A stretch of 64,000 nt of DNA from an archaeon (GCA_043799715.1 JAZDNM010000007.1:21265-85264); one strand, 5' to 3'. Counted from the stretch's first letter, positions 7,815 to 30,473 are shown. Numbers and translations are program-made. The notes: generated from the sequence alone by a model not told the origin.

Positions 7815-8072
7815 ATGGTCAACGGCGTCGAAAGACCCCTGGATTTGCTGAACAATTCCAAGGGTAAAGAGATACTTGTGCAGTTGAAGAATGACAGGCA
7901 GTTAGTCGGAACTTTGCTAGCATTTGACATACATATAAACATTGTCCTAGACAATGCAAAGGAAATTGAGAACAATGAGGCAAAGAGAAGCATAGGACTG
8001 GTTTTTGTCAGAGGCGACACGATAATCTTCATATCGCCTGCATCAACTTCTGCGCATGCAAAGAAAGAGTAA
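7815..8072 (+). CDS. Sm-like (LSm/SmAP) RNA-binding protein
   Basis: 85 aa with Sm1/Sm2 motifs (ILVQLKNDRQLVGTLLAFDIHINIVLDNA...VFVRGDTIIFI). A TTTAAAAAC box sits at -29. Confidence 0.9.
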   Translation: MVNGVERPLDLLNNSKGKEILVQLKNDRQLVGTLLAFDIHINIVLDNAKEIENNEAKRSIGLVFVRGDTIIFISPASTSAHAKKE

Positions 8073-8107
8073 GAGAACAGGGATTCTGGCTTGTTTCTGA
8101 TAGGTTT

Positions 8108-8129
8108 TCTGGTGCATTAAGTGTCCATA
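8108..8129 (+). repeat. Left terminal inverted repeat TCTGGTGCATTAAGTGTCCATA
   Basis: It is the exact reverse complement of 12618-12639. The TTCTG-TGCA core resembles IS6-family ends (GGTTCTGTTGCAAAGT). Confidence 0.85.
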
Positions 8130-8174
8130 ATCATGGCTTTTTTATGAGAAAAGAAGATAGAAATAATTGAGAAA

Positions 8175-9281
8175 TTATTTTCCAGATTTAATTCTATTGT
8201 CGTGTTTACATAACATCTGACAATTTTCAGCTGTTGTTTTTCCACCTTCGTGCCAAGGAGTTATATGGTCTGCTTCCATTCCTTCTATTTCAAAATGTTT
8301 CTTGCATTTTGGGCAAATACCCTTCTGTTTTTCATATGCAATTCTTTTTTGTTTATCTGAGAAAGCACGAAGATTGAGATATCGCTCGTTTCTTGTTAAA
8401 ATATATAGATATATTCCTTTTTGGTTCGTAATCTCTTCATCTTGCATTAATCCAGCTATTTCTTTTTCTAGTTTTTTTGAATCTAATTTTTTGTTCTTAA
8501 ATTTATTATACAATTCGCCCCAATTAATACCTCTCATCTCTTTTCTGTAATTTGGAAAAATTTTCCTCACCCAGCTAATTACATTTTGGAAATATTCCCA
8601 TAATTCGTCTGCTTTTTTGTCGTGTTGATGTTTAGACATATATTCCTCTATCTTCTCATTGTTAATCCACGATAAAACCGTTTCTAAAATTTCTTGTCTA
8701 ATCGGAGAGCCATTTACTAGTTGTCCACCATCGCCAGCTAGAAGATATGCTGCACAATTTGTCTTACTAAATTTTAATTTGGCATCTGAAAGCCATGGTC
8801 CTGTGTATACTGCATTAAGAAGCTCTTGTTCAGTTAATTTTACTCCAGAGATATTCACGATTCTAAACCAATCCAATTTTTCTCTTTCTTTTCCTTCACA
8901 AAAATAAATCATTAATTCATATTCTAATATTTGACTTTGTTCGTCTTTTGTTAAGCTATGAAAATATTTCCCATTTATTGAAAAATCTCCAGCAACATAT
9001 TGAGCAATACTAATTGTTCTTTGTTGTCCGTCTAAAACTTCAAAATTCCCACCATCTTTTTTTACCCAATATATAATATTAAGTGGGAACTTTTTCTTGA
9101 CTGTTTCAATAACCTCATTTCTCTGTTTATCCTTGTATACAAATTCTCTTTGATATTTCGGACGAATATCTAGTTTTCCTTCATAAGCAGTTACGCCTTC
9201 TTCAGCACTATCTTTATAGTCCTTTACAACTTCTCTTATGGGAATCTTATGTAACTCTACTTTCATAAGATAATGAACCAA
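8175..9281 (-). CDS. DUF262 (ParB/GmrSD-type N-terminal domain) - HNH endonuclease fusion
   Basis: N-terminal KYQREFVY and LDGQQRT motifs mark the DUF262 domain. The C-terminal HNH is CPKCKKHFEIEGMEADHITPWHEGGKTTAENCQMLCKHDN. The first codon at 9281 is TTG and the first ATG is at 9266. Confidence 0.8.
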   Translation of the reverse strand: MVHYLMKVELHKIPIREVVKDYKDSAEEGVTAYEGKLDIRPKYQREFVYKDKQRNEVIETVKKKFPLNIIYWVKKDGGNFEVLDGQQRTISIAQYVAGDFSINGKYFHSLTKDEQSQILEYELMIYFCEGKEREKLDWFRIVNISGVKLTEQELLNAVYTGPWLSDAKLKFSKTNCAAYLLAGDGGQLVNGSPIRQEILETVLSWINNEKIEEYMSKHQHDKKADELWEYFQNVISWVRKIFPNYRKEMRGINWGELYNKFKNKKLDSKKLEKEIAGLMQDEEITNQKGIYLYILTRNERYLNLRAFSDKQKRIAYEKQKGICPKCKKHFEIEGMEADHITPWHEGGKTTAENCQMLCKHDNRIKSGK

Positions 9282-9291
9282 AAAGAATTAT

Positions 9292-10440
9292 TTAAACTTT
9301 CTTATTCTTAATAATTACACGGGCATAAATGCTTGAATATAGCTTTCCTGTCATTACATCCTTAAAAGAAGGAACCTTATCTATTTTGGGATTGTAATCA
9401 AGATATAATGTACCTTTTGCATTAACAGTAAATTTGCCTGTTGGTTTTCCATTTTTATCTAGAATTTCCATTTTTTTGTTACTCTTAAAATCAATTGAAC
9501 CAACTATACCTAGGGCAATAATTTCAAATTGTTCTGGATTATATTTATCTAAAAAAGTAATTGGTACACCAATTAATCCTTTATAGTCCATCGGAATTTC
9601 GCTCACTTTATCTACATTTATAGCATCATAATTATCATACTTTGGATACTCGTTAGGGCTATATTTTTTATACAAAGTTAGAAACTCCCTATGCTTTTCA
9701 ACATCTAAATTAGTAAACCAACAAGAAGTTGAAACTCTGGCAATTTTATTTCCTTTTTCATCTGTATGGTGAAATTGTTTCCAATCTTTTGGAACTATAA
9801 AAAACATACCCACATTAAAATTTGTATAACCTGTTCTAATTTTATTTTCCTTGAACAATTTAAAAATATCTTTGTAAGTTAAGGCATTTGTATTTCCTAT
9901 AATCAAAAATTTTTTATTATAGTCTATTAATTGAGTTAAATATTCTCTAAATAGGGAGAAAGGAGGATTAGTGCAAACTATGTCTGATTGTTTTAATAGG
10001 TCAATGCACTCTTTACTACGAAAGTCCCCTCCTTGTTTAAGAGGTGTTGCTGTATTTTCGTTATGTTTAAGCAACCATTCAACATCAGATATGCCAATTG
10101 AACCATCATTATTAGAATCTTCTACTTTGTTTATTTCAAGTTTAAATGCTTCTTTAGAATTGGCTTTTAACCCCTTTATATTAAACAAAGGTAATTGACT
10201 CCCAACAATTGGCGACCCAGAATAAGAAGTGGCAATAAGTTTTTTTAATTGGAAATTGTTGAAGTTAGCTGCAAAAAACTTAAAAAAATTACTTTCATAT
10301 GGGTCATCACAGTTACAATAAATTACTTTATCCTTAAATTGTGCCTTATAATGCCTTAACTCTCTCTCAATATCACTAATCTGTGTATAAAATTCATCTT
10401 TCTTTGATTTTTTAGCATTGTCAAAAAGTTTAGTAGCCAT
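9292..10440 (-). CDS. N6-adenine DNA methyltransferase, EcoRI-methylase-like family
   Basis: 382 aa with N-terminal KDEFYTQ and the catalytic motif IV DIVCTNPPFS. It lies 10-25 nt upstream of the nuclease gene on the same strand. Confidence 0.8.
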   Translation of the reverse strand: MATKLFDNAKKSKKDEFYTQISDIERELRHYKAQFKDKVIYCNCDDPYESNFFKFFAANFNNFQLKKLIATSYSGSPIVGSQLPLFNIKGLKANSKEAFKLEINKVEDSNNDGSIGISDVEWLLKHNENTATPLKQGGDFRSKECIDLLKQSDIVCTNPPFSLFREYLTQLIDYNKKFLIIGNTNALTYKDIFKLFKENKIRTGYTNFNVGMFFIVPKDWKQFHHTDEKGNKIARVSTSCWFTNLDVEKHREFLTLYKKYSPNEYPKYDNYDAINVDKVSEIPMDYKGLIGVPITFLDKYNPEQFEIIALGIVGSIDFKSNKKMEILDKNGKPTGKFTVNAKGTLYLDYNPKIDKVPSFKDVMTGKLYSSIYARVIIKNKKV

Positions 10441-10464
10441 GATTAATTATTGGTTTTCCCATTT

Positions 10465-11418
10465 TTATAAGTTTTGTTGTGCTAAATTTATTAATTCAAG
10501 CCATCTATTCGGTGTCTGAAATTTCAGTTCAGGGATAGCCAACTCGCTCGGCGTTTTTCCTTTCAGGGCTTCGTGCGGTTTTACAAAATTGTAAAATATC
10601 TCTATGCTTTTCATAATCGCATAAGCACTTTCAACAGAGCCGTGCATCCCTCTAAATCCAGTTGTTCTCTGTCTTATTGTGTTGTGCATCCTCTCAACCC
10701 AGATGTTAAATCCCTCATTCTTCCTTTGAGTGACTATTTTATGCTCTATCTTGTATTTTCTTGTGCGGTTGTCATAACCAAAAGTTTTCTTGACTGCATT
10801 TTCATAAGCGAGAAATCCGTCTGTCGTAACTATCTTGACTTGTTCGCCTGTCTTGTCTTTGATGTTTGACAGGACTTTCTTTAGGTTGTTTTGGCTTCTG
10901 CTTTTGACATAAGCGGAGTTAATCATGAATCTTGTCTTTACATCAATCCCATCTATAAACCAGTTCTTGTCCGTTCCTTTCCTTTTGTGGCTCTTTCTCC
11001 TGTGATACTCCATTTCATCAACTTCTATGTAGCTTCCTATCTGGACTTTCAAGCCATCTGTGTAATCAGCTATTTTCAAGCTGTATTTTCTAACCCATCT
11101 TAAAATGGTGCTGTGGTCAGAGTTGTGCGGAAAGAACGCCTTAAAGTGCTCCTGAACCCCTCTTGTGCTTAATCCCCTGCAAAACAGGTCTAAGGCACAA
11201 GTTATCTTCTGAGGGCTGTTTCGCATCCTAAAGAATGTGTCTCGTGGTATGAACCTCTTGAAGCATGATTTGCAGAAGTATCTTTGCCTCTTTCCGTGGG
11301 CTTCTGTCTGTTTGAATCCTCGCCTGACTACCTCTTTGCTTTGGCAGTGAGGACAAGCTATCTGTTGTTTTTCCATGATATATTCATGTACCTGAACTAT
11401 ATAAACCTTTCGGTACAT
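10465..11418 (-). CDS. IS6-family DDE transposase with N-terminal zinc finger
   Basis: Zinc finger CPHCQS...FCKSCFKRF. The DDE triad context is IEVDEMEY...WFIDGID, VTTDGFLAYENAV and VERMHNTIRQRT, followed by YNFVKPHEALKGKTPSE. An alternative start is M15 at 11376. Confidence 0.8.
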   Translation of the reverse strand: MYRKVYIVQVHEYIMEKQQIACPHCQSKEVVRRGFKQTEAHGKRQRYFCKSCFKRFIPRDTFFRMRNSPQKITCALDLFCRGLSTRGVQEHFKAFFPHNSDHSTILRWVRKYSLKIADYTDGLKVQIGSYIEVDEMEYHRRKSHKRKGTDKNWFIDGIDVKTRFMINSAYVKSRSQNNLKKVLSNIKDKTGEQVKIVTTDGFLAYENAVKKTFGYDNRTRKYKIEHKIVTQRKNEGFNIWVERMHNTIRQRTTGFRGMHGSVESAYAIMKSIEIFYNFVKPHEALKGKTPSELAIPELKFQTPNRWLELINLAQQNL

Positions 11419-11528
11419 GATTTCAAATAACCCATACTGTCTTATAAAACGCCTATTAATTACATAAAGACATAGTCATTTTGCTACAAACCGAAAGACT
11501 TAAATAGTATGGTTAATAATATAACTAT

Positions 11529-12293
11529 ATGGAAAACAAAATGAAAGAATATAACCTGAAACTACCAAGTAGTTCAATAGTCAATCTTAAGAGCAGTTGG
11601 GAGGTACTTAAGATTATTTCAAAGACAGGAAAAACGTTTACAGACAAAGATGTAGTAAAAAACGGCTCTCCAATAAATGAAAATAATCTTTTTAGGGTTC
11701 TATCTTATCTTAAATATTTAGGGCTACTCGTAGAAAAGAGAGAAAGAGAAGTGATTAACGGTAAAGAAGAGTCTGTTCAAAGATGGATGCAAGAAGATAA
11801 CAAAGATGTCACGGAATTTTTCTTTCTGTTAAGGGATAATAGAGAAGAAGAGGCAAAAAAGATTTTGATAGAATTAATTAAAAAACACGATTTGTTTTTA
11901 TCAATCAAAGATGAGCTGATTAACGGGCATCCTTCAATTACAGTTATAGATTTAAAAGATTTTTTTAGGAAGAAAATTCCAGAAAAAAGCCCAAGCTACT
12001 ATGATAATGGAATCAAATTTACAATAGATTTCTTATTGTTTTGCAAATTGATATTCACTGAAGGGAATATAATAAAGCTAAAAGAACAAGAAAGCAAACA
12101 TGAAGAAAAGAAAGAAGAACCACAAGGTAGGGAGCAAACCAACGAAGCTAAAAAAAATATAACTCTTGGCGAGAATAAGTATATCGTCTCTATTTTTGGA
12201 AAAAATACTAACTTTGAATTTCCTATTAATCAAAATTCAGATATAGAAGATGTTGAAGCTATATTAAACATAATAAGAAAGAAACTAACATAA
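11529..12293 (+). CDS. Hypothetical protein (possible N-terminal winged helix), island passenger
   Basis: 254-aa ORF with lysine/glutamate-rich composition. No catalytic motif is recognised. Confidence 0.5.
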   Translation: MENKMKEYNLKLPSSSIVNLKSSWEVLKIISKTGKTFTDKDVVKNGSPINENNLFRVLSYLKYLGLLVEKREREVINGKEESVQRWMQEDNKDVTEFFFLLRDNREEEAKKILIELIKKHDLFLSIKDELINGHPSITVIDLKDFFRKKIPEKSPSYYDNGIKFTIDFLLFCKLIFTEGNIIKLKEQESKHEEKKEEPQGREQTNEAKKNITLGENKYIVSIFGKNTNFEFPINQNSDIEDVEAILNIIRKKLT

Positions 12294-12321
12294 TGCTCAT
12301 CGGTGAGAAATATAGGGACAC

Positions 12322-12365
12322 CACGAGGATTTGCTTGTTGTTTCCAAGCAAGTAAAATCCTCGTG
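12322..12365. terminator. Bidirectional hairpin between convergent island genes
   Basis: cacgaggatttgcttg (12322-12337) pairs with caagc...aaaatcctcgtg (12345-12365) around a 7-nt loop. Confidence 0.5.
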
Positions 12366-12389
12366 TCTATATTTATATTATTATAATGC

Positions 12390-12557
12390 TTATTCTTTTA
12401 AATCTTTTTCTAAACATATTTTTTCGTGATTGACCGTTACTTTTAACTCCTTACCTAATAACTTAGATTGTTCAACAATATCTTTAGGCAAGATGACAAT
12501 ATAGCGGTTATAGGTTTTATCACCAACTTTCTTGTCTAAAACTTCCCGTATTTTCAT
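12390..12557 (-). CDS. AbrB/SpoVT/MazE-like small DNA-binding protein (55 aa, below the ORF-track cutoff)
   Basis: My own translation is MKIREVLDKKVGDKTYNRYIVILPKDIVEQSKLLGKELKVTVNHEKICLEKDLKE. The ...IVILPKDIVEQ...G.EL.V pattern fits swapped-hairpin AbrB-type domains. Confidence 0.45.
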   Translation of the reverse strand: MKIREVLDKKVGDKTYNRYIVILPKDIVEQSKLLGKELKVTVNHEKICLEKDLKE

Positions 12558-12617
12558 AATATAATCATGTGCATGAATTATTTAAATCTGTCGGTACATG
12601 AACAAAAACAAATTACA

Positions 12618-12639
12618 TATGGACACTTAATGCACCAGA
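12618..12639 (-). repeat. Right terminal inverted repeat (reverse complement of 8108-8129)
   Basis: TATGGACACTTAATGCACCAGA is followed 3 nt later by the direct repeat TCTGATAGG. Confidence 0.85.
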
Positions 12640-12714
12640 GAGTCTGATAGGCAATTTTTATATAGTGAAGCCTTCTTTAGAAAAGAAGCTTTGGGAAGAA
12701 AACCCAAGGAAAAT

Positions 12715-12861
12715 GCGGAGGTGCCGGAGCGGCCAAACGGGCTAGCCTTAGGAGAGAGCATTTCTTTTCAGAGAAAAGAAATGCTCGGCAAAGAAAAGCT
12801 TCAATAATCTCAGAAAGCTAGTGGCTTAGTGCCTGCATAGGTTCAAATCCTATCCTCCGCA
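12715..12861 (+). tRNA. tRNA-Leu (anticodon UAG) with 63-nt intron at 37/38 (12753-12815)
   Basis: Acceptor GCGGAGG/CCTCCGC, anticodon stem CTAGC/GCTAG, loop CTTAGG-intron-A, a long variable arm and T-arm ATAGG-TTCAAAT-CCTAT. The mature length is 84 nt. Confidence 0.85.
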
Positions 12862-12873
12862 TAATCTATAAAA

Positions 12874-15800
12874 TCACGCAAATGCGCTTATTGATTGGGA
12901 GATGGCTGAAGCAAGCTGGATTTTTTCAGATTCCTGGGAAATTTTTTCCATATCATCCTTGTTGCAGATGAATGCAGGTTCTGTAAGCACAGCAGGCATG
13001 TTTGTGTTCTTGAGAACATACAGGCTGCCTTCTGCGGCTTCTGTGTCAGGCTTGATGCCCCTGTCTTTCACACCCAAACTGGCTACAATATTCTCCTGGA
13101 CTATCCTGGCAAATTCCTTTCCTTTTGTGGAAGTTCTGTAATAGAATGTTTCGGCTCCATTCGCAGAGCAGTACTTTCCATCAACATCCAATGATGCAGA
13201 ATTCATGTGAATGCTGACAAAGATATCCGCTTCAAAATCATTTGCGATTTTTACTCTTGAAGCAAGAGAAACAGCAGCGTCAGTTTCTCTGGTCATTTTT
13301 ACGCTGTATCCTTTTTCTTCAAGCACGCTCTTTAATTTTTCTGCTATTGCCAGATTCATGTCTTTTTCATTTACTCCGTCGCTGTTTACAGCGCCAGGGT
13401 CTGTTCCGCCGTGCCCCGCATCTATCACAATCTTCTTGCTGGCACTCTGGGCTGCTGCAGCGGCAGCAGCTGCGTTTGCTTGTTGGCTTGATGAAGCAAT
13501 ATAATAATATGCTTTCCCGATTTTCTTTACATATGCCTTTGCGCTGTCCCCATTCTGTTTCAAGAAGGGATTCTTGCAGGAGGAAATATCCTTGCTGCAG
13601 TATGTTGAAACATAAGTAGGGCCTTCCTTGTAAGCTGCAATAGCAAGCCCGATATTGCTGAACCTTCTCATATTGCAGGCGAGATATGCTATGCCGCCCT
13701 GGATGTTCTGCTCTGTATTGTACTTGTTTATCGACAGTATCCCCATTGTTTTTGCGCATGCCCCGCCATTCTTGAAATCATTCACAACTGTGTCCTTGAG
13801 CTGCATCAAGCCGTAAGCGCCTGTGCTTGACTGCTCCTTTACATCCCAGCTGCTTTCAACTTCTATGAATGCCCTTGCAAGATTAAAATTCACATCATAC
13901 TGCTTTGCATATTTGTCAATGAGAATATAAATTGCCTGCCTGCTCTGGAATGTGCTTTCAGATTTTGAATTCAGCATATCAGAGGCGCTGTAATCTTTTC
14001 TTATTATAATGCAAATCTCGCTGTTTGAAACCGCAGCGCCTGTTATCCCGGAATTATCTGCATCAATATCTATGCAGACAACATTATCAGGGGTTTCAGT
14101 GTTCTCAGAACCCTCAACTAAATTTTTTTTTTCCTCAGAAACAATGCATTTTGAGCCAGTCCACTGGCAGTTCTCAACAGAGCATTTGTTGCTCTCGCAT
14201 TCAATCTGGTTGTTAAAATTAGAGCATTCCATGCCATCTTCGCAATTAAGGCACGCTGCCTTGATTAATCCCTTTTGAATGTAGCATCTGCCTAATTCAT
14301 GGCATTCACTGTAACTACAGGTATTGAAAATGCCGTCGCTGCATGAAACGCAGTTTGCCTTGATTGTTCCAGGGCTTATTTTTGTGATTTCAGCCACTTC
14401 TTTCTTTGATGTTTTTTCAAGCTGTATGCTCGCCACATTCTCACGATACTTTGCGACCACTAAAGTCATAAGAAGATAATCCCCACTTTCATCCAAATCA
14501 AACTGCTGCTGAATATTCATTTCCAAAATTATTTCCCTGCCGCCAAGTGAGATTTTTGCACCATCTTTCACTGACAACTCCTTCAGCAAAATAGGATACT
14601 CCTTGCTGTTGAATGAAAGAATCTTTTCTGTATTGAGTTCCAAATCAGTGTACTCTGTGCTTGATTCCTTTATCTCGGTTGCCTCAACAGATTTCTTTTT
14701 TTCTGAAGAAACAAGACTCTTTTCTATTTTTGCCTTGAAAATCAATGTTGTTATTCTGTCAAATATCTCAGCAAGCCCTATTCTTGCCTGCGCTTTGTCC
14801 TGATTAAACAAGGATTTCAGGATTATATTCTCATATTGCCCTGTCACATTTGCTATTGCGCTGTTTATTTCCTGCGCTGTTTTGTCTGCTGTGTAGGACT
14901 TGCCGACAATGAGCTTTTCAAGAATTCCATTGTCTTTTGTCAGTTCATACTGTTTCTGGCTTACCTCTGCAAGCAAAGCCTGGCTTCCAGAGTGATCAAG
15001 CATGCTTGTATTCTGCAATGTTGATGCCAGTTCCTTTGCTTTTGCAAGAGTCTCGGAAAGCAAGCCCTGGTCTGTAAAGCTCTGATTTAGCGAGAGAGTA
15101 TCAAGCCAGCATATTATTTTCTTGTCAGTGCAATAGCCCACCTGTTTCCATCTGTCTGGCTGTGTTGTCAGGCTCGGGTTGTCTGTTGTGCACACTCTGA
15201 TAATGCCTAAGCTTGAAATTGACGGGGATAATGCTGATTCCACAGATGACTGCAGATTTAATGATGAAACTGATACAATCCCTGATGTCCCTGCTATGCA
15301 TTCCTGCTCTGTTTTTACCTGCTGCGCTGCCTGCGCAGCAAGATAAGAGTCCTGCAGTTCATTCATGAAATAGGATGTTGTAACCTGCCCGAAGCCGCAT
15401 TCCTCCTGCGCATTTATCTTTACGCATAATTCTGTATATCCTGAAGGCCCTGTGAAATCAACTGACTTGTCAACCTGCTCGCCTTTTGCAATGTAGCCGA
15501 CTGCATTAGGCACAGCCATCTGCTGCATCTGCGCATAATATTCTGTCTGCGGCGACCCTTTCAGATACACATTGTAGTAAGCCCCTGCATCCTTGCCTGC
15601 ATAAATCCTGTAATAAACTTTGTAATGGGATGTTGAAGGCACAGTCGCCTCTGAAAGAATATTCGAGGAGAATGTTGCGTGGAACTGCACAGGGCTTTCA
15701 GGCTCGAGAAGTGAATCGAACATGTCTGATGTTGTTGGATATCTTGCAGAGACCCATGCCTTGCAGATTTCTGTTCCTGCCGCCTCTGTGCTTCTTGCCT

Positions 15801-18800
15801 GGAATGCATTAAAAGCATTTGCGCCATAATAATTTGTAAAGTAATTCACTGAGTCCTGCGCTTTCTGCCATGAGTCCTGCACAAACAGATACTCCCCTCC
15901 GCCGCGCGCGGTGCTTTTTCCTGACATGGTTTCAAGCAGCGACGGAATTCCAACCTTGGCTAAAGGCGCTGCCTGCTTCCAGAAAAATTCGCATAGATAA
16001 ATGGATTTAATCTGGTCGCAGATCCCCACATTTCTGCCTGTTGCAAGATTTTCCTGAAGGCAGTCCCTGACTGCTTTCTGTATCATCACAAAATTATCCA
16101 ATCCTGCATGAACCCCTGTAAGGCAGATTGGAACAATTATCCCCTCTCTTGCATTCGGCAGGCACAGCGCAATGCTGCCTATGATTCCTGTCTGCACAAC
16201 ATCTGCAACAGGATACTTGCCCCCAAAATCGCATCTTGATGAAGGGCATAAAACAGGGTCGCATAAATTAAACATTGTATGGCAGTCTTTTGGTGACATG
16301 AAATCCTCGCATTCATACTGGGGAACTGTAACTGCAGGCTTTCCTCTTGAAAATGACTGCCCTCCAACAGATATGCCTCCTTTGTTCTTGTACTGCCTTG
16401 CAGCTTCAAGCAGATACTGCCTTGCGAGTTTTATCATGTCTGCTGAATTGGGTATTGATGAATAGGTATTTTCAGACATTCCTGTCTGCATGCTGAATTG
16501 AATGCACGGCTTGTCATCCCCATGCCCTGTTGATTCCCATTCTTCCAAGCCATCGCCATTAACATTGCAAATCCAGTAGCTTACAGGCATTCCTGATTCA
16601 GTGTAGGATTTTGTGCTTGAAGTGCCTAAGCTGGATGGCTCGGTTGCGGCATACCATCCGTCTTTTGCATATTTGCCAAGAGGGAGTATGGCAGGCAGCC
16701 CTGCATAAGAGCCTGTCTCCCAGAATTTTACAGCAGGATTTTTGTAAGGATTTGAATATGTTGATGCTGCTGTTATTTCAGCGTATGAAGTTCCAAGGCT
16801 GCTTAAGATTTTTCTCTTGTTCTCCCCTGCAAGTTCATCTCCTATTTTCAATGCACCACTACTGCTAGAGATTTCATAAATTTTAGAAAAGCTGTAGCCC
16901 TGCCCGATAGAATCAAGCACTGCTATATAACTGATGCCCTGCGCAGTGAAAACCGCTGCTTTCTGCCCCTGCGAGATGCTGACGCCCTGCATTTTGCTGT
17001 AATCAGCTTCCTTGACAATATTTTTGTCAGAGAAGGATATTGCCTTGCTCTGGTCCCCTACAAGGGTGCTTTCAACATCTATCCCTGCTGCCTGGAAGAT
17101 ATTTGTTGCTTCTGTGCTTGCCTTGGTGGTTGTTAAAATCTTGTTCCAGTAATTTGCATCATCATAAAGCTTCTGCTGCGAAGCCTGGCACATTGCATCA
17201 GACAGCTTTTTATCAGTACATGCCTGCTGCATTTCAAGATTGAACAATGAATCCCTTACATCAGTTGATGAAAGATAATTCTTGTCCTCAAGAACCTTAA
17301 TATTCCCCTCGCTGAAGACATCCCCTGCTTTCAGCTCAGTGCCATCCCTTGACTTGAATGTAACATCCTTGTACTCATCAAAATATGTCTGGGATTCCTG
17401 GACATATTTTTCCTGGTTTACATATTCCTCTCCGAATGCTCCAAGAACTCCCTCTTTCTTTTCAACAACACCTGCGGTTTTCTTTATTGTGTCTGCTTTG
17501 GAATTTACATTCTTGTAAATGCCCTGTATTGTGCTGACAGAGCTGTCAATTGCGTCTGCATTCTTGTAATAGCAGTCATGGAATGTGCTGTATTTGCCTT
17601 CTGCAACCCCTGACTGGCATATTGGCTCCCAGTATTTCATTGCCTCTGTTCTCGCAAGGCTGCTGCCGCTGCCTGCACCCAGATTATTGAAGAAATTTTT
17701 CACAACAAAATATGCGCTGCCAGCAAAGCATGTGCCTTTCCATACCTTAATGATACTCCCAAGATTATCAACAATCTTCTCCCATTTTGCAATTGAATCG
17801 TTAAGCTCGCTTATCAATTCCTGGGTTTTTTCAGTGCTGAGCTGTATCGACCTTTTCTCAATCCCAATCTTAAATGTGAAATTTGCCTGTGTCTGGGCTC
17901 TTGCAATCATTGGAGAGATAGTCACTGATGCATCTTTTTTCAGGTTTATCTTGCTGACTCTCAAGTCAACTAAGATTTCTTTTGAGGCATCCTTTACAGA
18001 AAGCTTCACTGAATCTTTTTCCTTTACTTTCACTGTAATCGGGTTGCCAGCCTTGTTTTGATAGGAAAATTCAACATAATCCTCTGCAATGCTCAAAACA
18101 GACAATGTCCCTGAGACTGCCTCGTTCTCGCTGTAAGCTTCTGTATTGCCATTAACCATCAAGTCAGCGGACTTCTCGTCCCTGCTCACTTCCTTTATGT
18201 CCTCAAGAACAGCATAATAGCTTCCGCTTGAGGCAGAGATGAATGCTGAAGACAAGCTTAAATCGTGGATTTTCATCAGCTCAAGCTGCTGGCTTGCCTG
18301 TTCTGCGATTCCTGAGCCAGAATAGTCCTTTGCAATCCTGTTAAGCAAATCCTCCTGTGTCTTGAACTTTTTCAAATTTCCAGCAAGCTCTGCTGCCTTG
18401 TACAGCGCATCAGCGCCGTAATATTCCGGCTTTGCACCTTCCTGCTGGGATTTTTTCTCAGAACCATACTGCTCTGAAACTTTTTTGTAATCAGCCAAAG
18501 ATTCAGAGAAATATTCCTCAAGAAGTTTGCCAAAATCATCAGAGTTGTAATTTTTTTCAACAGAGCCTGTCAGCTTGTCAAATGTGAAATAATAGTCCCA
18601 GACAAAAGTGCCCTGCCCTGTTTCCGACGCTGTAATAATCCTGAATTCCGCGTCCTTTCCGAGATAATCTTTGAGCCCTTTTTCAACGCTTGTGTCGCAG
18701 CCGCTCAGGCATTTGATATCCTCTCCAAATTTTGAAGAGCCTTTAATCAGTGTGCTGAATATGTTGAAAAGCGAGTACTTCTTGCCTTTCAGGAGGCTGT

Positions 18801-20052
18801 TTACTACTATATTGAAGTTGTCGAAATAATCGCTCTTTATTGTGTCTGCCTTGACAATCACAACAAAATCCTGATTGAGATTTTTTAGATAAGAGGAAAT
18901 TGCATTTGATGTGCTGCCGATATATGCAAGATATACATTCTGCCCTGAAACAATCTTGTCTCCTGTCTTGAATTCATTTGATGCAATCTCATTCTTTGCA
19001 GAGTCCCTGATTGTCAATCTTGCTTTTGGAGGGTCAATTGAGAGAGTTGTCGGCTGTGAGTCCTTGCAGTTTACTGTCACCTTTCCTCCGCCGACAATAT
19101 TCTGCTCTATATTTGAAATCCAGCATTCATCATCCAAAAATCTCTGCCCTTTTGAAAGCCATAATTCATCGTCGCCAATCCTCACCTTTGCCTTCATTTC
19201 CGGATAGTTGATGCTGTTCAGATTAACTTTCAGCGCAGCAGAGCAATAGTATCCGGGCAGATAGATTTCATTTGAACTCTGCCCTGCCCTTAATGTAACA
19301 GAAGTCAACTGAGTTACTGCATCAGTGTATATCGCAATCTTAACATATTCTCCTGCAGAATCTTTTCCTATCTCCAATGCCCTCAAATACGCCTTTCCGT
19401 TCCAGAATGAATACATTTTGTAATATTGTTTCCATTCCTCCTCGCTCAGCACAGGCAGCAGGAATCCTGCTTTCCCAACTCCAAACGCTTTTTCTGCATT
19501 ATACTGTATCAGGGCTGTTAAATTTGCCTCAACCCACTCAGTCATATTCTTTTCAATCGGCTGATTTTTTAATATCACAACAAGATACCCCAGATTATTC
19601 AATACAGGGCTGCCGAGCAGCTGGGTTCCCCATGTTGTCAGGGCTGCTCTTGCAGGATGAAATCCTATCCCTGCAATATCTTTTGACAACTGCTGCCCCT
19701 TGAATGAGATTGATGTTATTTCAGGGACTTCTATCAAAGGATTAATTTTTATTCCAGTAAGCTGGCAGAAAACCGGGACATCCTGCTCCTCAAGCAAATC
19801 GCTTCTGACAACTGCAGGCGAACAGCTTCCAGGCAAAATCTGCAGGATGAAATCCTGCCTTGCGAGGCACTGCTCCTGGCTGAATGCAGGCCAGTATGTA
19901 TCAATTGAATTTGAGTAATATGAAAGCGGAGAAGGGGAATAGCTGTATGTTGCTGCATATGCTGCTGCAGAGATTATTGCTGCAAAGAAAATGAAAGCAA
20001 AAGCTAACAGTATTCTGCATTTGCCTATTTTAATCAAATCTGTTTTTCTCAT
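12874..20052 (-). CDS. Giant secreted protein (2392 aa) with C-terminal lytic transglycosylase (SLT/GH23) and N-acetylmuramoyl-L-alanine amidase (Amidase_3) domains
   Basis: N-terminal signal ...LLAFAFIFFAAIISAAAYA. SLT motifs are FIEVESSW, GAYGLMQL and AIAAYKEGP (about nt 13501-13938). An Ala8 linker follows. Amidase_3 motifs are IVIDAGHGGTDPGA, VSIHMNS and GAETFYY (about nt 12877-13437). A 12-Cys module lies at about nt 14140-14358. Confidence 0.9.
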   Translation of the reverse strand: MRKTDLIKIGKCRILLAFAFIFFAAIISAAAYAATYSYSPSPLSYYSNSIDTYWPAFSQEQCLARQDFILQILPGSCSPAVVRSDLLEEQDVPVFCQLTGIKINPLIEVPEITSISFKGQQLSKDIAGIGFHPARAALTTWGTQLLGSPVLNNLGYLVVILKNQPIEKNMTEWVEANLTALIQYNAEKAFGVGKAGFLLPVLSEEEWKQYYKMYSFWNGKAYLRALEIGKDSAGEYVKIAIYTDAVTQLTSVTLRAGQSSNEIYLPGYYCSAALKVNLNSINYPEMKAKVRIGDDELWLSKGQRFLDDECWISNIEQNIVGGGKVTVNCKDSQPTTLSIDPPKARLTIRDSAKNEIASNEFKTGDKIVSGQNVYLAYIGSTSNAISSYLKNLNQDFVVIVKADTIKSDYFDNFNIVVNSLLKGKKYSLFNIFSTLIKGSSKFGEDIKCLSGCDTSVEKGLKDYLGKDAEFRIITASETGQGTFVWDYYFTFDKLTGSVEKNYNSDDFGKLLEEYFSESLADYKKVSEQYGSEKKSQQEGAKPEYYGADALYKAAELAGNLKKFKTQEDLLNRIAKDYSGSGIAEQASQQLELMKIHDLSLSSAFISASSGSYYAVLEDIKEVSRDEKSADLMVNGNTEAYSENEAVSGTLSVLSIAEDYVEFSYQNKAGNPITVKVKEKDSVKLSVKDASKEILVDLRVSKINLKKDASVTISPMIARAQTQANFTFKIGIEKRSIQLSTEKTQELISELNDSIAKWEKIVDNLGSIIKVWKGTCFAGSAYFVVKNFFNNLGAGSGSSLARTEAMKYWEPICQSGVAEGKYSTFHDCYYKNADAIDSSVSTIQGIYKNVNSKADTIKKTAGVVEKKEGVLGAFGEEYVNQEKYVQESQTYFDEYKDVTFKSRDGTELKAGDVFSEGNIKVLEDKNYLSSTDVRDSLFNLEMQQACTDKKLSDAMCQASQQKLYDDANYWNKILTTTKASTEATNIFQAAGIDVESTLVGDQSKAISFSDKNIVKEADYSKMQGVSISQGQKAAVFTAQGISYIAVLDSIGQGYSFSKIYEISSSSGALKIGDELAGENKRKILSSLGTSYAEITAASTYSNPYKNPAVKFWETGSYAGLPAILPLGKYAKDGWYAATEPSSLGTSSTKSYTESGMPVSYWICNVNGDGLEEWESTGHGDDKPCIQFSMQTGMSENTYSSIPNSADMIKLARQYLLEAARQYKNKGGISVGGQSFSRGKPAVTVPQYECEDFMSPKDCHTMFNLCDPVLCPSSRCDFGGKYPVADVVQTGIIGSIALCLPNAREGIIVPICLTGVHAGLDNFVMIQKAVRDCLQENLATGRNVGICDQIKSIYLCEFFWKQAAPLAKVGIPSLLETMSGKSTARGGGEYLFVQDSWQKAQDSVNYFTNYYGANAFNAFQARSTEAAGTEICKAWVSARYPTTSDMFDSLLEPESPVQFHATFSSNILSEATVPSTSHYKVYYRIYAGKDAGAYYNVYLKGSPQTEYYAQMQQMAVPNAVGYIAKGEQVDKSVDFTGPSGYTELCVKINAQEECGFGQVTTSYFMNELQDSYLAAQAAQQVKTEQECIAGTSGIVSVSSLNLQSSVESALSPSISSLGIIRVCTTDNPSLTTQPDRWKQVGYCTDKKIICWLDTLSLNQSFTDQGLLSETLAKAKELASTLQNTSMLDHSGSQALLAEVSQKQYELTKDNGILEKLIVGKSYTADKTAQEINSAIANVTGQYENIILKSLFNQDKAQARIGLAEIFDRITTLIFKAKIEKSLVSSEKKKSVEATEIKESSTEYTDLELNTEKILSFNSKEYPILLKELSVKDGAKISLGGREIILEMNIQQQFDLDESGDYLLMTLVVAKYRENVASIQLEKTSKKEVAEITKISPGTIKANCVSCSDGIFNTCSYSECHELGRCYIQKGLIKAACLNCEDGMECSNFNNQIECESNKCSVENCQWTGSKCIVSEEKKNLVEGSENTETPDNVVCIDIDADNSGITGAAVSNSEICIIIRKDYSASDMLNSKSESTFQSRQAIYILIDKYAKQYDVNFNLARAFIEVESSWDVKEQSSTGAYGLMQLKDTVVNDFKNGGACAKTMGILSINKYNTEQNIQGGIAYLACNMRRFSNIGLAIAAYKEGPTYVSTYCSKDISSCKNPFLKQNGDSAKAYVKKIGKAYYYIASSSQQANAAAAAAAAQSASKKIVIDAGHGGTDPGAVNSDGVNEKDMNLAIAEKLKSVLEEKGYSVKMTRETDAAVSLASRVKIANDFEADIFVSIHMNSASLDVDGKYCSANGAETFYYRTSTKGKEFARIVQENIVASLGVKDRGIKPDTEAAEGSLYVLKNTNMPAVLTEPAFICNKDDMEKISQESEKIQLASAISQSISAFA

Positions 20053-30313: not shown

Positions 30314-30422
30314 AGCCCCATAGTACAGCGGTCCAGTATGATGCCCTTTGGAGGAAGGTATCGGAAACCTTGGTTTCTGATGAAGAAAGGCATAGACCCA
30401 GGTTCGAATCCTGGTGGGGCTA
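30314..30422 (+). tRNA. tRNA-Gln (anticodon UUG) with 36-nt intron at 37/38 (30352-30387)
   Basis: The acceptor pair is AGCCCCA/TGGGGCT, with the A1:U72 pair typical of archaeal tRNA-Gln. Anticodon stem is ATGCC/GGCAT and T-arm is CCAGG-TTCGAAT-CCTGG. Confidence 0.85.
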
Positions 30423-30473
30423 CTTCTTTTTTGCAAAGGAAAGGTTTAAAAAATAAATCCTTTAGGTATTGGG

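Follow-up and report, generated by a model that had tools for sequence, protein, structure and literature searches.

Introduction

Insertion sequences (ISs) of the IS6 family are defined by an 8-bp target duplication, 14-bp ends and a length of 0.7-0.9 kb that reaches 1.76 kb at most, and a single member in the ISfinder listing carries a passenger gene (PMC7986276). By the terminal-repeat criterion for IS6/IS26, the ends start with GG and have a G at position 7 (PMC6807381). Restriction-modification (R-M) genes are also known to move in bacteria as units that make 8-bp duplications, although those units were chosen for having no linked mobility genes, and no archaeal case survived the screen (PMC2853133). 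Here we describe an element at positions 8105-12642 of a 64,000-nucleotide stretch of DNA from an uncultured DPANN archaeon (JAZDNM010000007.1:21265-85264 of assembly GCA_043799715.1; hereafter the window, meaning the stretch at its full length). The element is very probably one copy of a unit transposon whose family is spread through the DPANN archaea (Nanoarchaeota, Pacearchaeota and Woesearchaeota). It is a distant relative of IS6 and not a member of that family, and the modular family to which it belongs is large and apparently undescribed.

DPANN archaea have tiny genomes and depend on host cells, and little is known of the ways in which they acquire defence genes and exchange them. The family described here is a concrete vehicle for such exchange, with boundaries that can be read to the base.

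Results

Boundaries, terminal repeats and target duplication

Positions 8108-8129 read TCTGGTGCATTAAGTGTCCATA, a 22-mer whose exact reverse complement stands at 12618-12639, as had been claimed in an earlier note made from the sequence alone (the original prediction). Allowing up to 3 mismatches, the 22-mer has 2 matches in the whole window, where 100 dinucleotide-preserving shuffles gave an expectation of 0.00; the note had recommended a search of the genome for further copies of the end, and within the window this pair is the only one. The direct repeat TCTGATAGG, which had likewise been noticed, occupies 8096-8104 on the left and 12643-12651 on the right (9 bp each, unstranded), and is separated from the perfect 22-mers by TTT at the left end and GAG at the right end. 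With 4 occurrences in the window, where 0.58 would be expected, the 9-mer taken alone is weak evidence; it is counted as the target-site duplication because of its position, since the relatives described below share the same geometry of 9-bp repeat, two variable bases and CTCTGGTGC.

The same relatives settle two details. The duplication had been put at 8-9 bp, and its copies had been placed 3 nt outside the ends of the element. The tips of the relatives consist of two variable bases followed by C/T-TCTGGTGC, and therefore the 3 bases are the imperfect tips of the inverted repeats and not a spacer. It follows that the element is 8105-12642 (4,538 bp, minus strand, that of the transposase) and that the duplication, which is real, is exactly 9 bp long and not 8; the left copy is in the register seen in 14 relatives. 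The left terminal inverted repeat is TTTTCTGGTGCATTAAGTGTCCATA (8105-8129, plus strand) and the right one, given as its reverse complement, is CTCTCTGGTGCATTAAGTGTCCATA (12618-12642, minus strand). Each is 25 bp long, and they are identical at 23/25 positions around the perfect 22-bp core.

Scans of the window found no end copy inside the element and no inverted-repeat copy adjoining the transposase gene. A composite of two ISs was considered and ruled out, as there is one transposase gene and there are no internal end copies.

Insertion site and empty site

The element lies between an Sm/LSM protein gene (7815-8072, plus strand; Pfam LSM, 82.5 bits), which ends 23 nt before the left duplication, and a tRNA-Leu(UAG) gene (12715-12861, plus strand; Rfam tRNA, 43 bits), both of which are outside the element. 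The tRNA gene, which was matched by Rfam and missed by ARAGORN, has an intron of ~63 nt and starts 63 nt past the right duplication and 72 nt past the element, so that the insertion is indeed upstream of tRNA-Leu, as the note had it. The TATA-like sequence TTTTTATATA of this gene (12655-12664) starts 4 nt past the right duplication; the duplicated 9 bp border on the TATA box, and the promoter context of the tRNA is therefore kept. Beyond the Sm and tRNA-Leu genes are those for TFB, S8e and a 2392-aa amidase/SLT protein, neighbours that identify the host as archaeal; the proteins are deposited under an NCBI metagenome-assembled genome labelled 'archaeon'.

A contig carrying a relative of the 2392-aa protein (L206; protein P0125, 43% identity) has the same order of giant protein, tRNA-Leu, Sm, S8e and TFB genes. 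Its tRNA-Leu also bears an intron, and its spacer between Sm and tRNA-Leu is 62 bp long and has no island. Once the element and one copy of the duplication are subtracted, the window spacer is 95 bp long, and its core TTTCTGATAGGCAATTTTTATA aligns with TTTCTGACATAAATTTTTATA of L206. Since the L206 spacer is both empty and alignable, the island has been inserted into a conserved spacer, right at the upstream boundary of the TATA-like box of the tRNA gene. L206 comes from a distant relative, as the 43% identity of the giant protein indicates, and not from the same species, in which the uninterrupted junction would be expected to read ...GGCTTGTTTCTGATAGGCAATTTTTATA.... The insertion is real and probably recent. 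Its organization is that by which unit transposons, or transporter ISs, are recognized: one transposase and its passengers stand inside one pair of ends flanked by a duplication, and the whole is missing at the homologous site of a related genome.

An alternative origin for an AT-rich segment with defence genes beside a tRNA gene is an integrase-type genomic island, a provirus or an integrated plasmid that targeted tRNA-Leu. Proximity to a tRNA recurs in the family: among 14 elements, four lie within 170 nt of a tRNA gene (at 12715 in the window, 8504-8576 in L130, 3630-3706 in L152 and 11718-11790 in L150). In three of these four cases the element precedes the 5' end of the tRNA by 47-162 nt; another member, L132, is ~1 kb upstream of a 16S rRNA gene. 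However, scans of open reading frames (ORFs) and of Pfam and NCBIfam profiles found no integrase, replication or virion gene in the element; the tRNA is intact, with the repeat 63 nt outside it; and the boundaries are inverted ends with a 9-bp duplication, not att sites. Moreover, phage records gave no match, and viral contigs gave one relative only, 23% identical. An integrase-borne origin is on this evidence highly improbable. As for the transposon family itself, it may prefer the promoters of stable-RNA genes, or the pattern may be a mere effect of where intergenic space tolerates insertion; four of 14 is not clearly above the expectation for intergenic-only insertion.

Some features of the neighbourhood are recorded here in their own right. 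The tRNA-Leu(UAG) intron of ~63 nt in the window has a counterpart of ~40 nt in L206 (gene at 14221-14343), and odd 'tRNA-???' calls by ARAGORN at 2296-2388 and 30342-30423 may also represent intron-containing tRNAs. The 2392-aa protein (12874-20052, minus strand) ends in SLT transglycosylase and N-acetylmuramoyl-L-alanine amidase domains, and giant proteins adjoin the same tRNA-Leu/Sm/S8e/TFB cluster in related DPANN genomes, a conserved arrangement. It may be a surface protein that attacks the wall of the host cell.

A modular family of relatives

Relatives were gathered by scanning GTDB species representatives with a transposase profile, which yielded ~30 DPANN loci, 13 of them with both ends. 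Together with the window copy and one further element with diverged ends (L207), these make a set of 15 complete elements; counts of 28 ends refer to the 14 elements other than L207. The duplications of the 13 relatives are unrelated in sequence and match at 9/9 positions in 11 and at 8/9 in the remaining two, so that 12 of the 14 elements, the window copy included, have a 9/9 duplication. The ends of L207, CTTTGTTACTTTAATTGG, escaped a search that allowed up to 3 mismatches and came to light only as a 32-nt inverted repeat, but they too are flanked by an 8/9 duplication over 9 bp, and the length is thus 9 bp in 15/15 complete copies. The consensus of the 28 ends is 5'-T(T/A)CTCTGGTGC(A/G)TTAA, with positions 6-11, 13, 15, 19 and 24 invariant; the tip is T in 26/28, followed by T or A in 27/28 and never GG, whereas G at position 7 is present in 28/28. 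Ends in the family are 17-25 bp long. Complete copies range from 2.4 to 7.3 kb, extra genes are present in all 15, and no transposase-only copy was found among them.

The window copy resembles its relatives in only two stretches, the transposase module (10436-11424) and the AbrB-like gene with the right end (12393-12641). In nucleotide comparison its cargo is unique to it, except that L207 additionally shares the 254-aa gene. This restricted homology points to a design of two conserved modules and two variable slots; in the window, slot 1 holds the 254-aa gene and slot 2 a type II R-M pair. An element with an 80%-identical transposase, L001 (on the same contig as L130), is 4.8 kb long, has ends CTCTGGTGCGTTAAGTG and duplication CGCCATTTA, and repeats the order of the window (AbrB-like gene, opposite-strand gene, transposase) with a DUF5343 gene on the opposite strand and an Eco57I-type methylase plus a HincII-type nuclease as cargo. 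Six further loci with a 75%-identical transposase (L002-L007) had no recognisable ends, and matches to a 16-mer end pattern in metagenome contigs were mostly due to chance (~8/120 loci had real ends among the matches listed).

Cargo differs from one relative to the next. It consists of an MvaI/BcnI nuclease with a methylase in L144, a PabI-like nuclease with methylases in L207, N6_N4 methylases with partners of unassigned function in L137 and L143, an HNH nuclease in L136, a Schlafen/AlbA_2 ATPase in L150, and DUF4325 with HATPase in L135. Other elements carry a HAD hydrolase with a transaldolase (L141) or two radical-SAM proteins (L152). In L147 (9676-15431; 8/9 duplication) the cargo looks like housekeeping genes and comprises two genes resembling class II aminoacyl-tRNA synthetases, an LD-carboxypeptidase and a SAM (S-adenosylmethionine) methyltransferase. 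This can be read as capture of non-defence genes by the family or as mobilisation of a stretch of chromosome by two ends.

The largest element, L132 (4984-12324 of JBFMDT010000003.1, Nanoarchaeota MAG226; 7.3 kb), is flanked by the perfect 9-bp duplication AAATAATGG and lies ~1 kb upstream of an rRNA operon. It carries genes for Cas1, Cas2, Cas4, a 579-aa protein with a Cas12f TNB domain and an N6_N4 methylase, as well as a CRISPR array of at least nine 37-nt repeats that is partly masked by N. As judged from these genes, a whole miniature type V CRISPR-Cas system is the predicted cargo of a small DDE transposon. MAG226 holds a second member, L144, whose cargo is different, and L137 (10001-10897 and 15865-20211) contains two transposase genes ~8 kb apart; the occurrence of several members in one metagenome-assembled genome (MAG) is evidence that in some genomes the family exists in multiple copies and is active. 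In one contig, L128 (CAYIKF010000027.1), a transposase of 84% identity and a perfect end of the family occur under the label 'uncultured Gammaproteobacteria bacterium'. A binning error is the probable cause, cross-domain transfer being less likely.

The transposase

The 303-aa DDE transposase (10465-11376, minus strand) has an N-terminal zinc ribbon of the form C-x2-C...C-x2-C, a helix-turn-helix (HTH) and a D120/D186/E228 core, and is identical to NCBI MFH0831897.1. It is encoded by one uninterrupted ORF, as in all relatives, and is intact: every Cys, D, D and E that is invariant in the family alignment is present, the cysteines being C8, C11, C35 and C38. At least 837 homologues exist. The best 120 are 62-100% identical and come, where named, from Pacearchaeota, Nanoarchaeota and Woesearchaeota; the homologues carry only the label 'DDE-type integrase/transposase/recombinase'. 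A sequence search of the PDB gave no match, and exact-protein look-ups with the Sm protein, the 317-aa and 303-aa forms of the transposase and P0001 matched no contigs.

Among NCBIfam models the protein scores best with IS6 (73 bits; cut-off 125) and second best with IS1 (56.2 bits; cut-off 100), and it is also below the cut-off of Pfam DDE_Tnp_IS240 (PF13610; 24 bits against 27). The InsA zinc ribbon at the N terminus, for its part, is above the cut-offs of the InsA/IS1-IS1595 domain models (PF03811, 28.2 against 26.1 bits; NF050000, 28.7 against 28 bits). Aligned with Tnp26 of IS26, for which the authentic retrieved sequence was used, the transposase is 25% identical over 211 aa (BLASTP E=3e-8; hhalign probability 96%, E=4.7e-9), in a region that spans the HTH and the second D and E. 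The closest annotated plasmid transposases belong to IS6 as well, at 23-26% identity.

These similarities, together with the resemblance of the end core and the G at position 7 in all 28 ends, are what one would expect if the element were an ordinary member of IS6/IS26, or an IS26-style pseudo-compound transposon with extra genes. IS6 is, after all, the best-scoring IS family in NCBIfam. Against this, the profile score is far under the cut-off, the tips are T(T/A), and a 9-bp duplication in 15/15 copies departs from the 8 bp by which the family is defined (PMC7986276). Furthermore, there is one transposase within one inverted pair of ends, not two directly repeated IS copies, and cargo in 15/15 elements contrasts with the single passenger-carrying IS6 member listed. 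Membership of IS6/IS26 is thus quite improbable. The 'IS6-type' label of the original prediction holds as far as distant homology goes, in Tnp26 identity, hhalign score and end cores, and fails on profile score, duplication and size, while by the terminal-repeat criterion the ends agree at G7 and differ at the tips.

Cargo and base composition

The original prediction of a restriction-modification or defence cassette in the element proved correct. The nuclease gene (8175-9266, minus strand) encodes a 363-aa type II restriction endonuclease with GmrSD_N/DUF262 (66 bits in Pfam for GmrSD_N) and HNH (46 bits) domains. Its match to PADLOC REase_II (PDLC03418) reaches 439.7 bits and aligns residues 6-368 of a 368-aa ORF (8175-9281) with positions 1-372 of the 372-position profile; the ATG at 9266 was taken as the start, since this longer, TTG-initiated ORF matches the profile from residue 6 onward. 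The second gene (9292-10440, minus strand) encodes a 382-aa EcoRI-like N6-adenine DNA methyltransferase with an NPPF motif, which scores 443.6 bits with Pfam EcoRI_methylase and 381.3 bits with PADLOC MTase_II. The two genes are on the same strand, 10 nt apart, and the PADLOC type II matches of both identify the cargo as a predicted type II R-M pair.

The interior of the element had been described as AT-rich. That is true of the part outside the transposase gene (R-M, 254-aa and AbrB-like genes), which has a GC content of 0.298, whereas the transposase gene, at 0.407, matches the flanks at 0.408. Such a mosaic could be read as a small IS lodged within an AT-rich island of greater age, with an outer 22-bp repeat that is coincidental or of other origin, and the duplication of the transposase promoter region near the right end would fit this. 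However, no inverted-repeat copy stands beside the transposase gene, in 14 relatives the same outer ends, with a 9-bp duplication each time, enclose all of the cargo, and all 4.5 kb are absent from the syntenic site in L206. An IS nested in an island therefore has very little to recommend it. In the transposon that we favour, the mosaic may have arisen from later exchange of cargo; the composition is a hint, though no proof, that within the lineage of the window the transposase is older than the cargo modules.

The AbrB-like gene, the promoters and the 254-aa protein

Read in the direction of the minus strand, the element consists of the right end, a promoter, the AbrB-like gene, a hairpin, the 254-aa gene on the opposite strand, a second promoter, the transposase, the methylase, the nuclease and the left end. 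The AbrB-like gene (12390-12557, minus strand) encodes a 55-aa protein of the AbrB/MazE (SpoVT-AbrB) fold, 58% identical to its counterpart in L001. The match to Pfam MazE_antitoxin is at E=1.3e-4 and 22.3 bits, under the cut-off of 24.7. A gene of this kind is present in 10/15 complete elements (9 of the 14 end-consensus elements and L207), and homologues also stand beside an end at L114, L071, L047 and L062; L143 and L152 have in its position a small ORF that, by inspection of its sequence, encodes a putative ribbon-helix-helix protein. The AbrB-like gene is thus part of the conserved backbone and not one of four passengers, as the note had counted it; the modules that can be exchanged are only the R-M pair and, probably, the 254-aa gene.

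The candidate promoters of the transposase gene (11377-11420, minus strand) and of the AbrB-like gene (12558-12601, minus strand) are near-copies, 81% identical over 54 nt. The former has, between TGTACC and GGTACA motifs, a TATA box that reads TTTATATA on the minus strand (11398-11405). In most elements RGGTRCC-GAAAGGTTTATATAGTTC-RGGTRCCTAA precedes the start of the transposase, with a near-copy ahead of the AbrB-like gene. This twin-promoter pattern was seen in the window, L114, L129, L135, L141, L147 and L150, and the hexamer (GGTACC, GGTGCC or GATACC) tends to match at both promoters of one element, a co-variation that suggests an element-specific operator. The AbrB-like protein is likely to be a transcriptional regulator of the element. 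A scan for sigma-70 promoters is uninformative for an archaeon.

A strong hairpin (12308-12374, unstranded) lies between the convergent 254-aa and AbrB-like genes. With a fold energy of -31.7 kcal/mol (z = -5.85), it was matched in stability by 0/200 shuffles, and it is probably a bidirectional terminator. It also marks the junction of a variable and a conserved module.

The 254-aa protein of slot 1 (11529-12293, plus strand; between the AbrB-like and transposase genes) is a predicted tandem winged-helix protein of unassigned function. It matched nothing in Pfam, NCBIfam or PADLOC, a family search relaxed to E<=5 was also negative, and a set of 5.8 billion sequences yielded only 13 homologues; its similarity to the DUF5343 protein of L130 is weak (E=0.026). 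A homologue 77% identical occupies the same slot in L207 (6001-6750) beside a different R-M cargo, and another, in L211 (6001-6762), adjoins a HicAB toxin-antitoxin pair with no transposase nearby. The AlphaFold2 model (predicted local distance difference test, pLDDT, 82.7) has two predicted winged-helix domains and a small C-terminal domain. No fold match was found at E<=0.001, and the weak ones were to Pol III C82, PadR, TFE-alpha and the recognition domain of BpuJI (TM 0.40).

Discussion

What is the mechanism by which the element would move? We propose that the zinc-ribbon and HTH region of the transposase makes contact with the T(T/A)CTCTGGTGC(A/G)TTAA ends and that the enzyme exposes 3'-OH ends, which would be joined to target phosphates staggered by 9 bp, with repair of the gaps giving rise to the duplication. 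In this way the element would have entered its present site, the spacer that separates the Sm gene from the promoter of tRNA-Leu. A replicative route, in which a cointegrate is resolved by host recombination, is proposed because the nearest known relatives are IS6/IS26; we consider it and cut-and-paste transposition to be about evenly balanced. The AbrB-like protein probably represses its own promoter and that of the transposase through the GGTRCC motifs that flank the TATA boxes. The R-M cargo, for its part, would contribute to defence of the host and to post-segregational stability of the element.

Several points weigh against this account. Archaeal IS6-like elements are without experiments (PMC6807381), and so is the present family; the chemistry and pathway of transposition, the cointegrate route, the role of the regulator and the activity of the window copy are what we infer. 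The element is present in a single copy in the window. The empty site that the note had suggested seeking was found in L206 as the same gene order without the island, but the exact empty-site 24-mer TTGTTTCTGATAGGCAATTTTTAT had 0 matches in genome contigs and metagenome contigs; because no same-species empty site was found, it is the perfect repeats that carry the case for a recent insertion. A transposase with host-like GC content next to cargo of unlike GC content is unexpected for a single, recently arrived unit. Finally, the transposase promoter of L132 keeps GGTRCC in an element that has no AbrB-like gene, and therefore another factor may read the motif.

Some of these points would also fit a copy that is real but immobile, that is, a fixed and domesticated defence island whose transposase no longer works. 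Only one copy was seen, no polymorphic empty site turned up in the genome and metagenome contigs, and the GC content of the transposase gene has ameliorated to the host value. On the other hand, the 22-bp core is perfect, the duplication is 9/9, the ORF is intact with its invariant residues, and both promoters are conserved. Several members also occur in some MAGs (L132 with L144; L137), which points to ongoing activity of the family. We regard an immobile copy as unlikely, though it deserves more weight than the other alternatives considered above, and a copy of a mobile unit transposon remains our preferred interpretation.

A broader proposal can be made tentatively, and we give it somewhat less than even weight. 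It is possible that these elements form an IS6-related family in its own right, undescribed, with 9-bp duplications, T(T/A) tips, a zinc-ribbon transposase, a repressor (AbrB-like or ribbon-helix-helix) encoded by the element and acting on twin GGTRCC-flanked promoters, and two exchangeable cargo slots, and that this family is a main vehicle of defence systems among the reduced DPANN genomes, including type II R-M and a complete Cas12f-type CRISPR-Cas locus with its array. In that case it would exist as a cargo carrier only, and never as a bare IS.

With one small transposase, short ends and a 9-bp duplication, the elements carry type II R-M genes, a miniature CRISPR-Cas system or metabolic genes. 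The defined ends and the many natural variants make the swapping of cargo between two slots testable, and the same resource opens a test of whether archaeal IS6-like enzymes use cointegrates and of whether AbrB-like proteins tune transposition. Archaeal transposases of this compact kind, whose ends are known, could also become genetic tools in organisms for which there are none. In annotation, islands of this family are easily taken for chromosomal defence loci.

No published description of the DPANN family was found in the literature searched, ISfinder being outside this comparison. The closest described system is IS6/IS26. As in IS26, a single DDE transposase (25% identical to Tnp26) has an H-HTH followed by the catalytic core, and the end cores are alike (CTCTGGTGCA..AAGT in the family and CACTGTTGCA.AAGT in IS26). 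The IS26 end GGCACTGTTGCAAAGT resembles the family end TTCTCTGGTGCATTAAGT, G at position 7 included, and the E-x2-H-x3-R-x-R signature after the catalytic E in the family is similar to E--F---K-R in archaeal IS6-like transposases (PMC6807381). Unlike IS6/IS26, the family scores 73 bits with the hidden Markov model NF033587, for which the cut-off is 125, makes duplications of 9 bp instead of 8, and has T(T/A) tips instead of GG. Many archaeal 'IS6' elements also lack the GG, and Harmer and Hall consider that they should be split from IS6/IS26 (PMC6807381). The family differs further in an extra N-terminal InsA-type zinc ribbon, an AbrB-like gene at one end and a size of 2.4-7.3 kb with cargo always present, compared with 0.7-0.9 kb and one passenger-carrying member.

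The zinc ribbon, which is above the domain cut-offs, is shared with IS1, and a 9-bp duplication is typical of IS1. In other respects the family is unlike IS1: its score with NF033558 is 56.2 bits against a cut-off of 100, its ends are different, and its transposase is a single ORF, whereas insA and insB' of IS1 are joined by a programmed -1 frameshift. An archaeal IS1 subgroup in ISfinder (ISMhu11) has lengths of up to ~4.6 kb, and the family may have a link to it.

With regard to cargo, the family is comparable to two other kinds of mobile element. Like Tn7-like elements (PMC8649781), its members have one set of ends, their own transposase and variable, defence-rich passengers that include R-M and CRISPR-Cas systems; unlike them, they rely on one small transposase, lack TnsB/C/D-type machinery and a resolvase, reside in DPANN archaea and are only 2.4-7.3 kb long. 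With the mobile R-M units of Furuta, Abe and Kobayashi (2010, PMC2853133), the window copy shares R-M genes within inverted repeats, a short duplication and an empty site in a relative. Where it differs from those units is that the family has its transposase on board and combines one backbone with many cargos.

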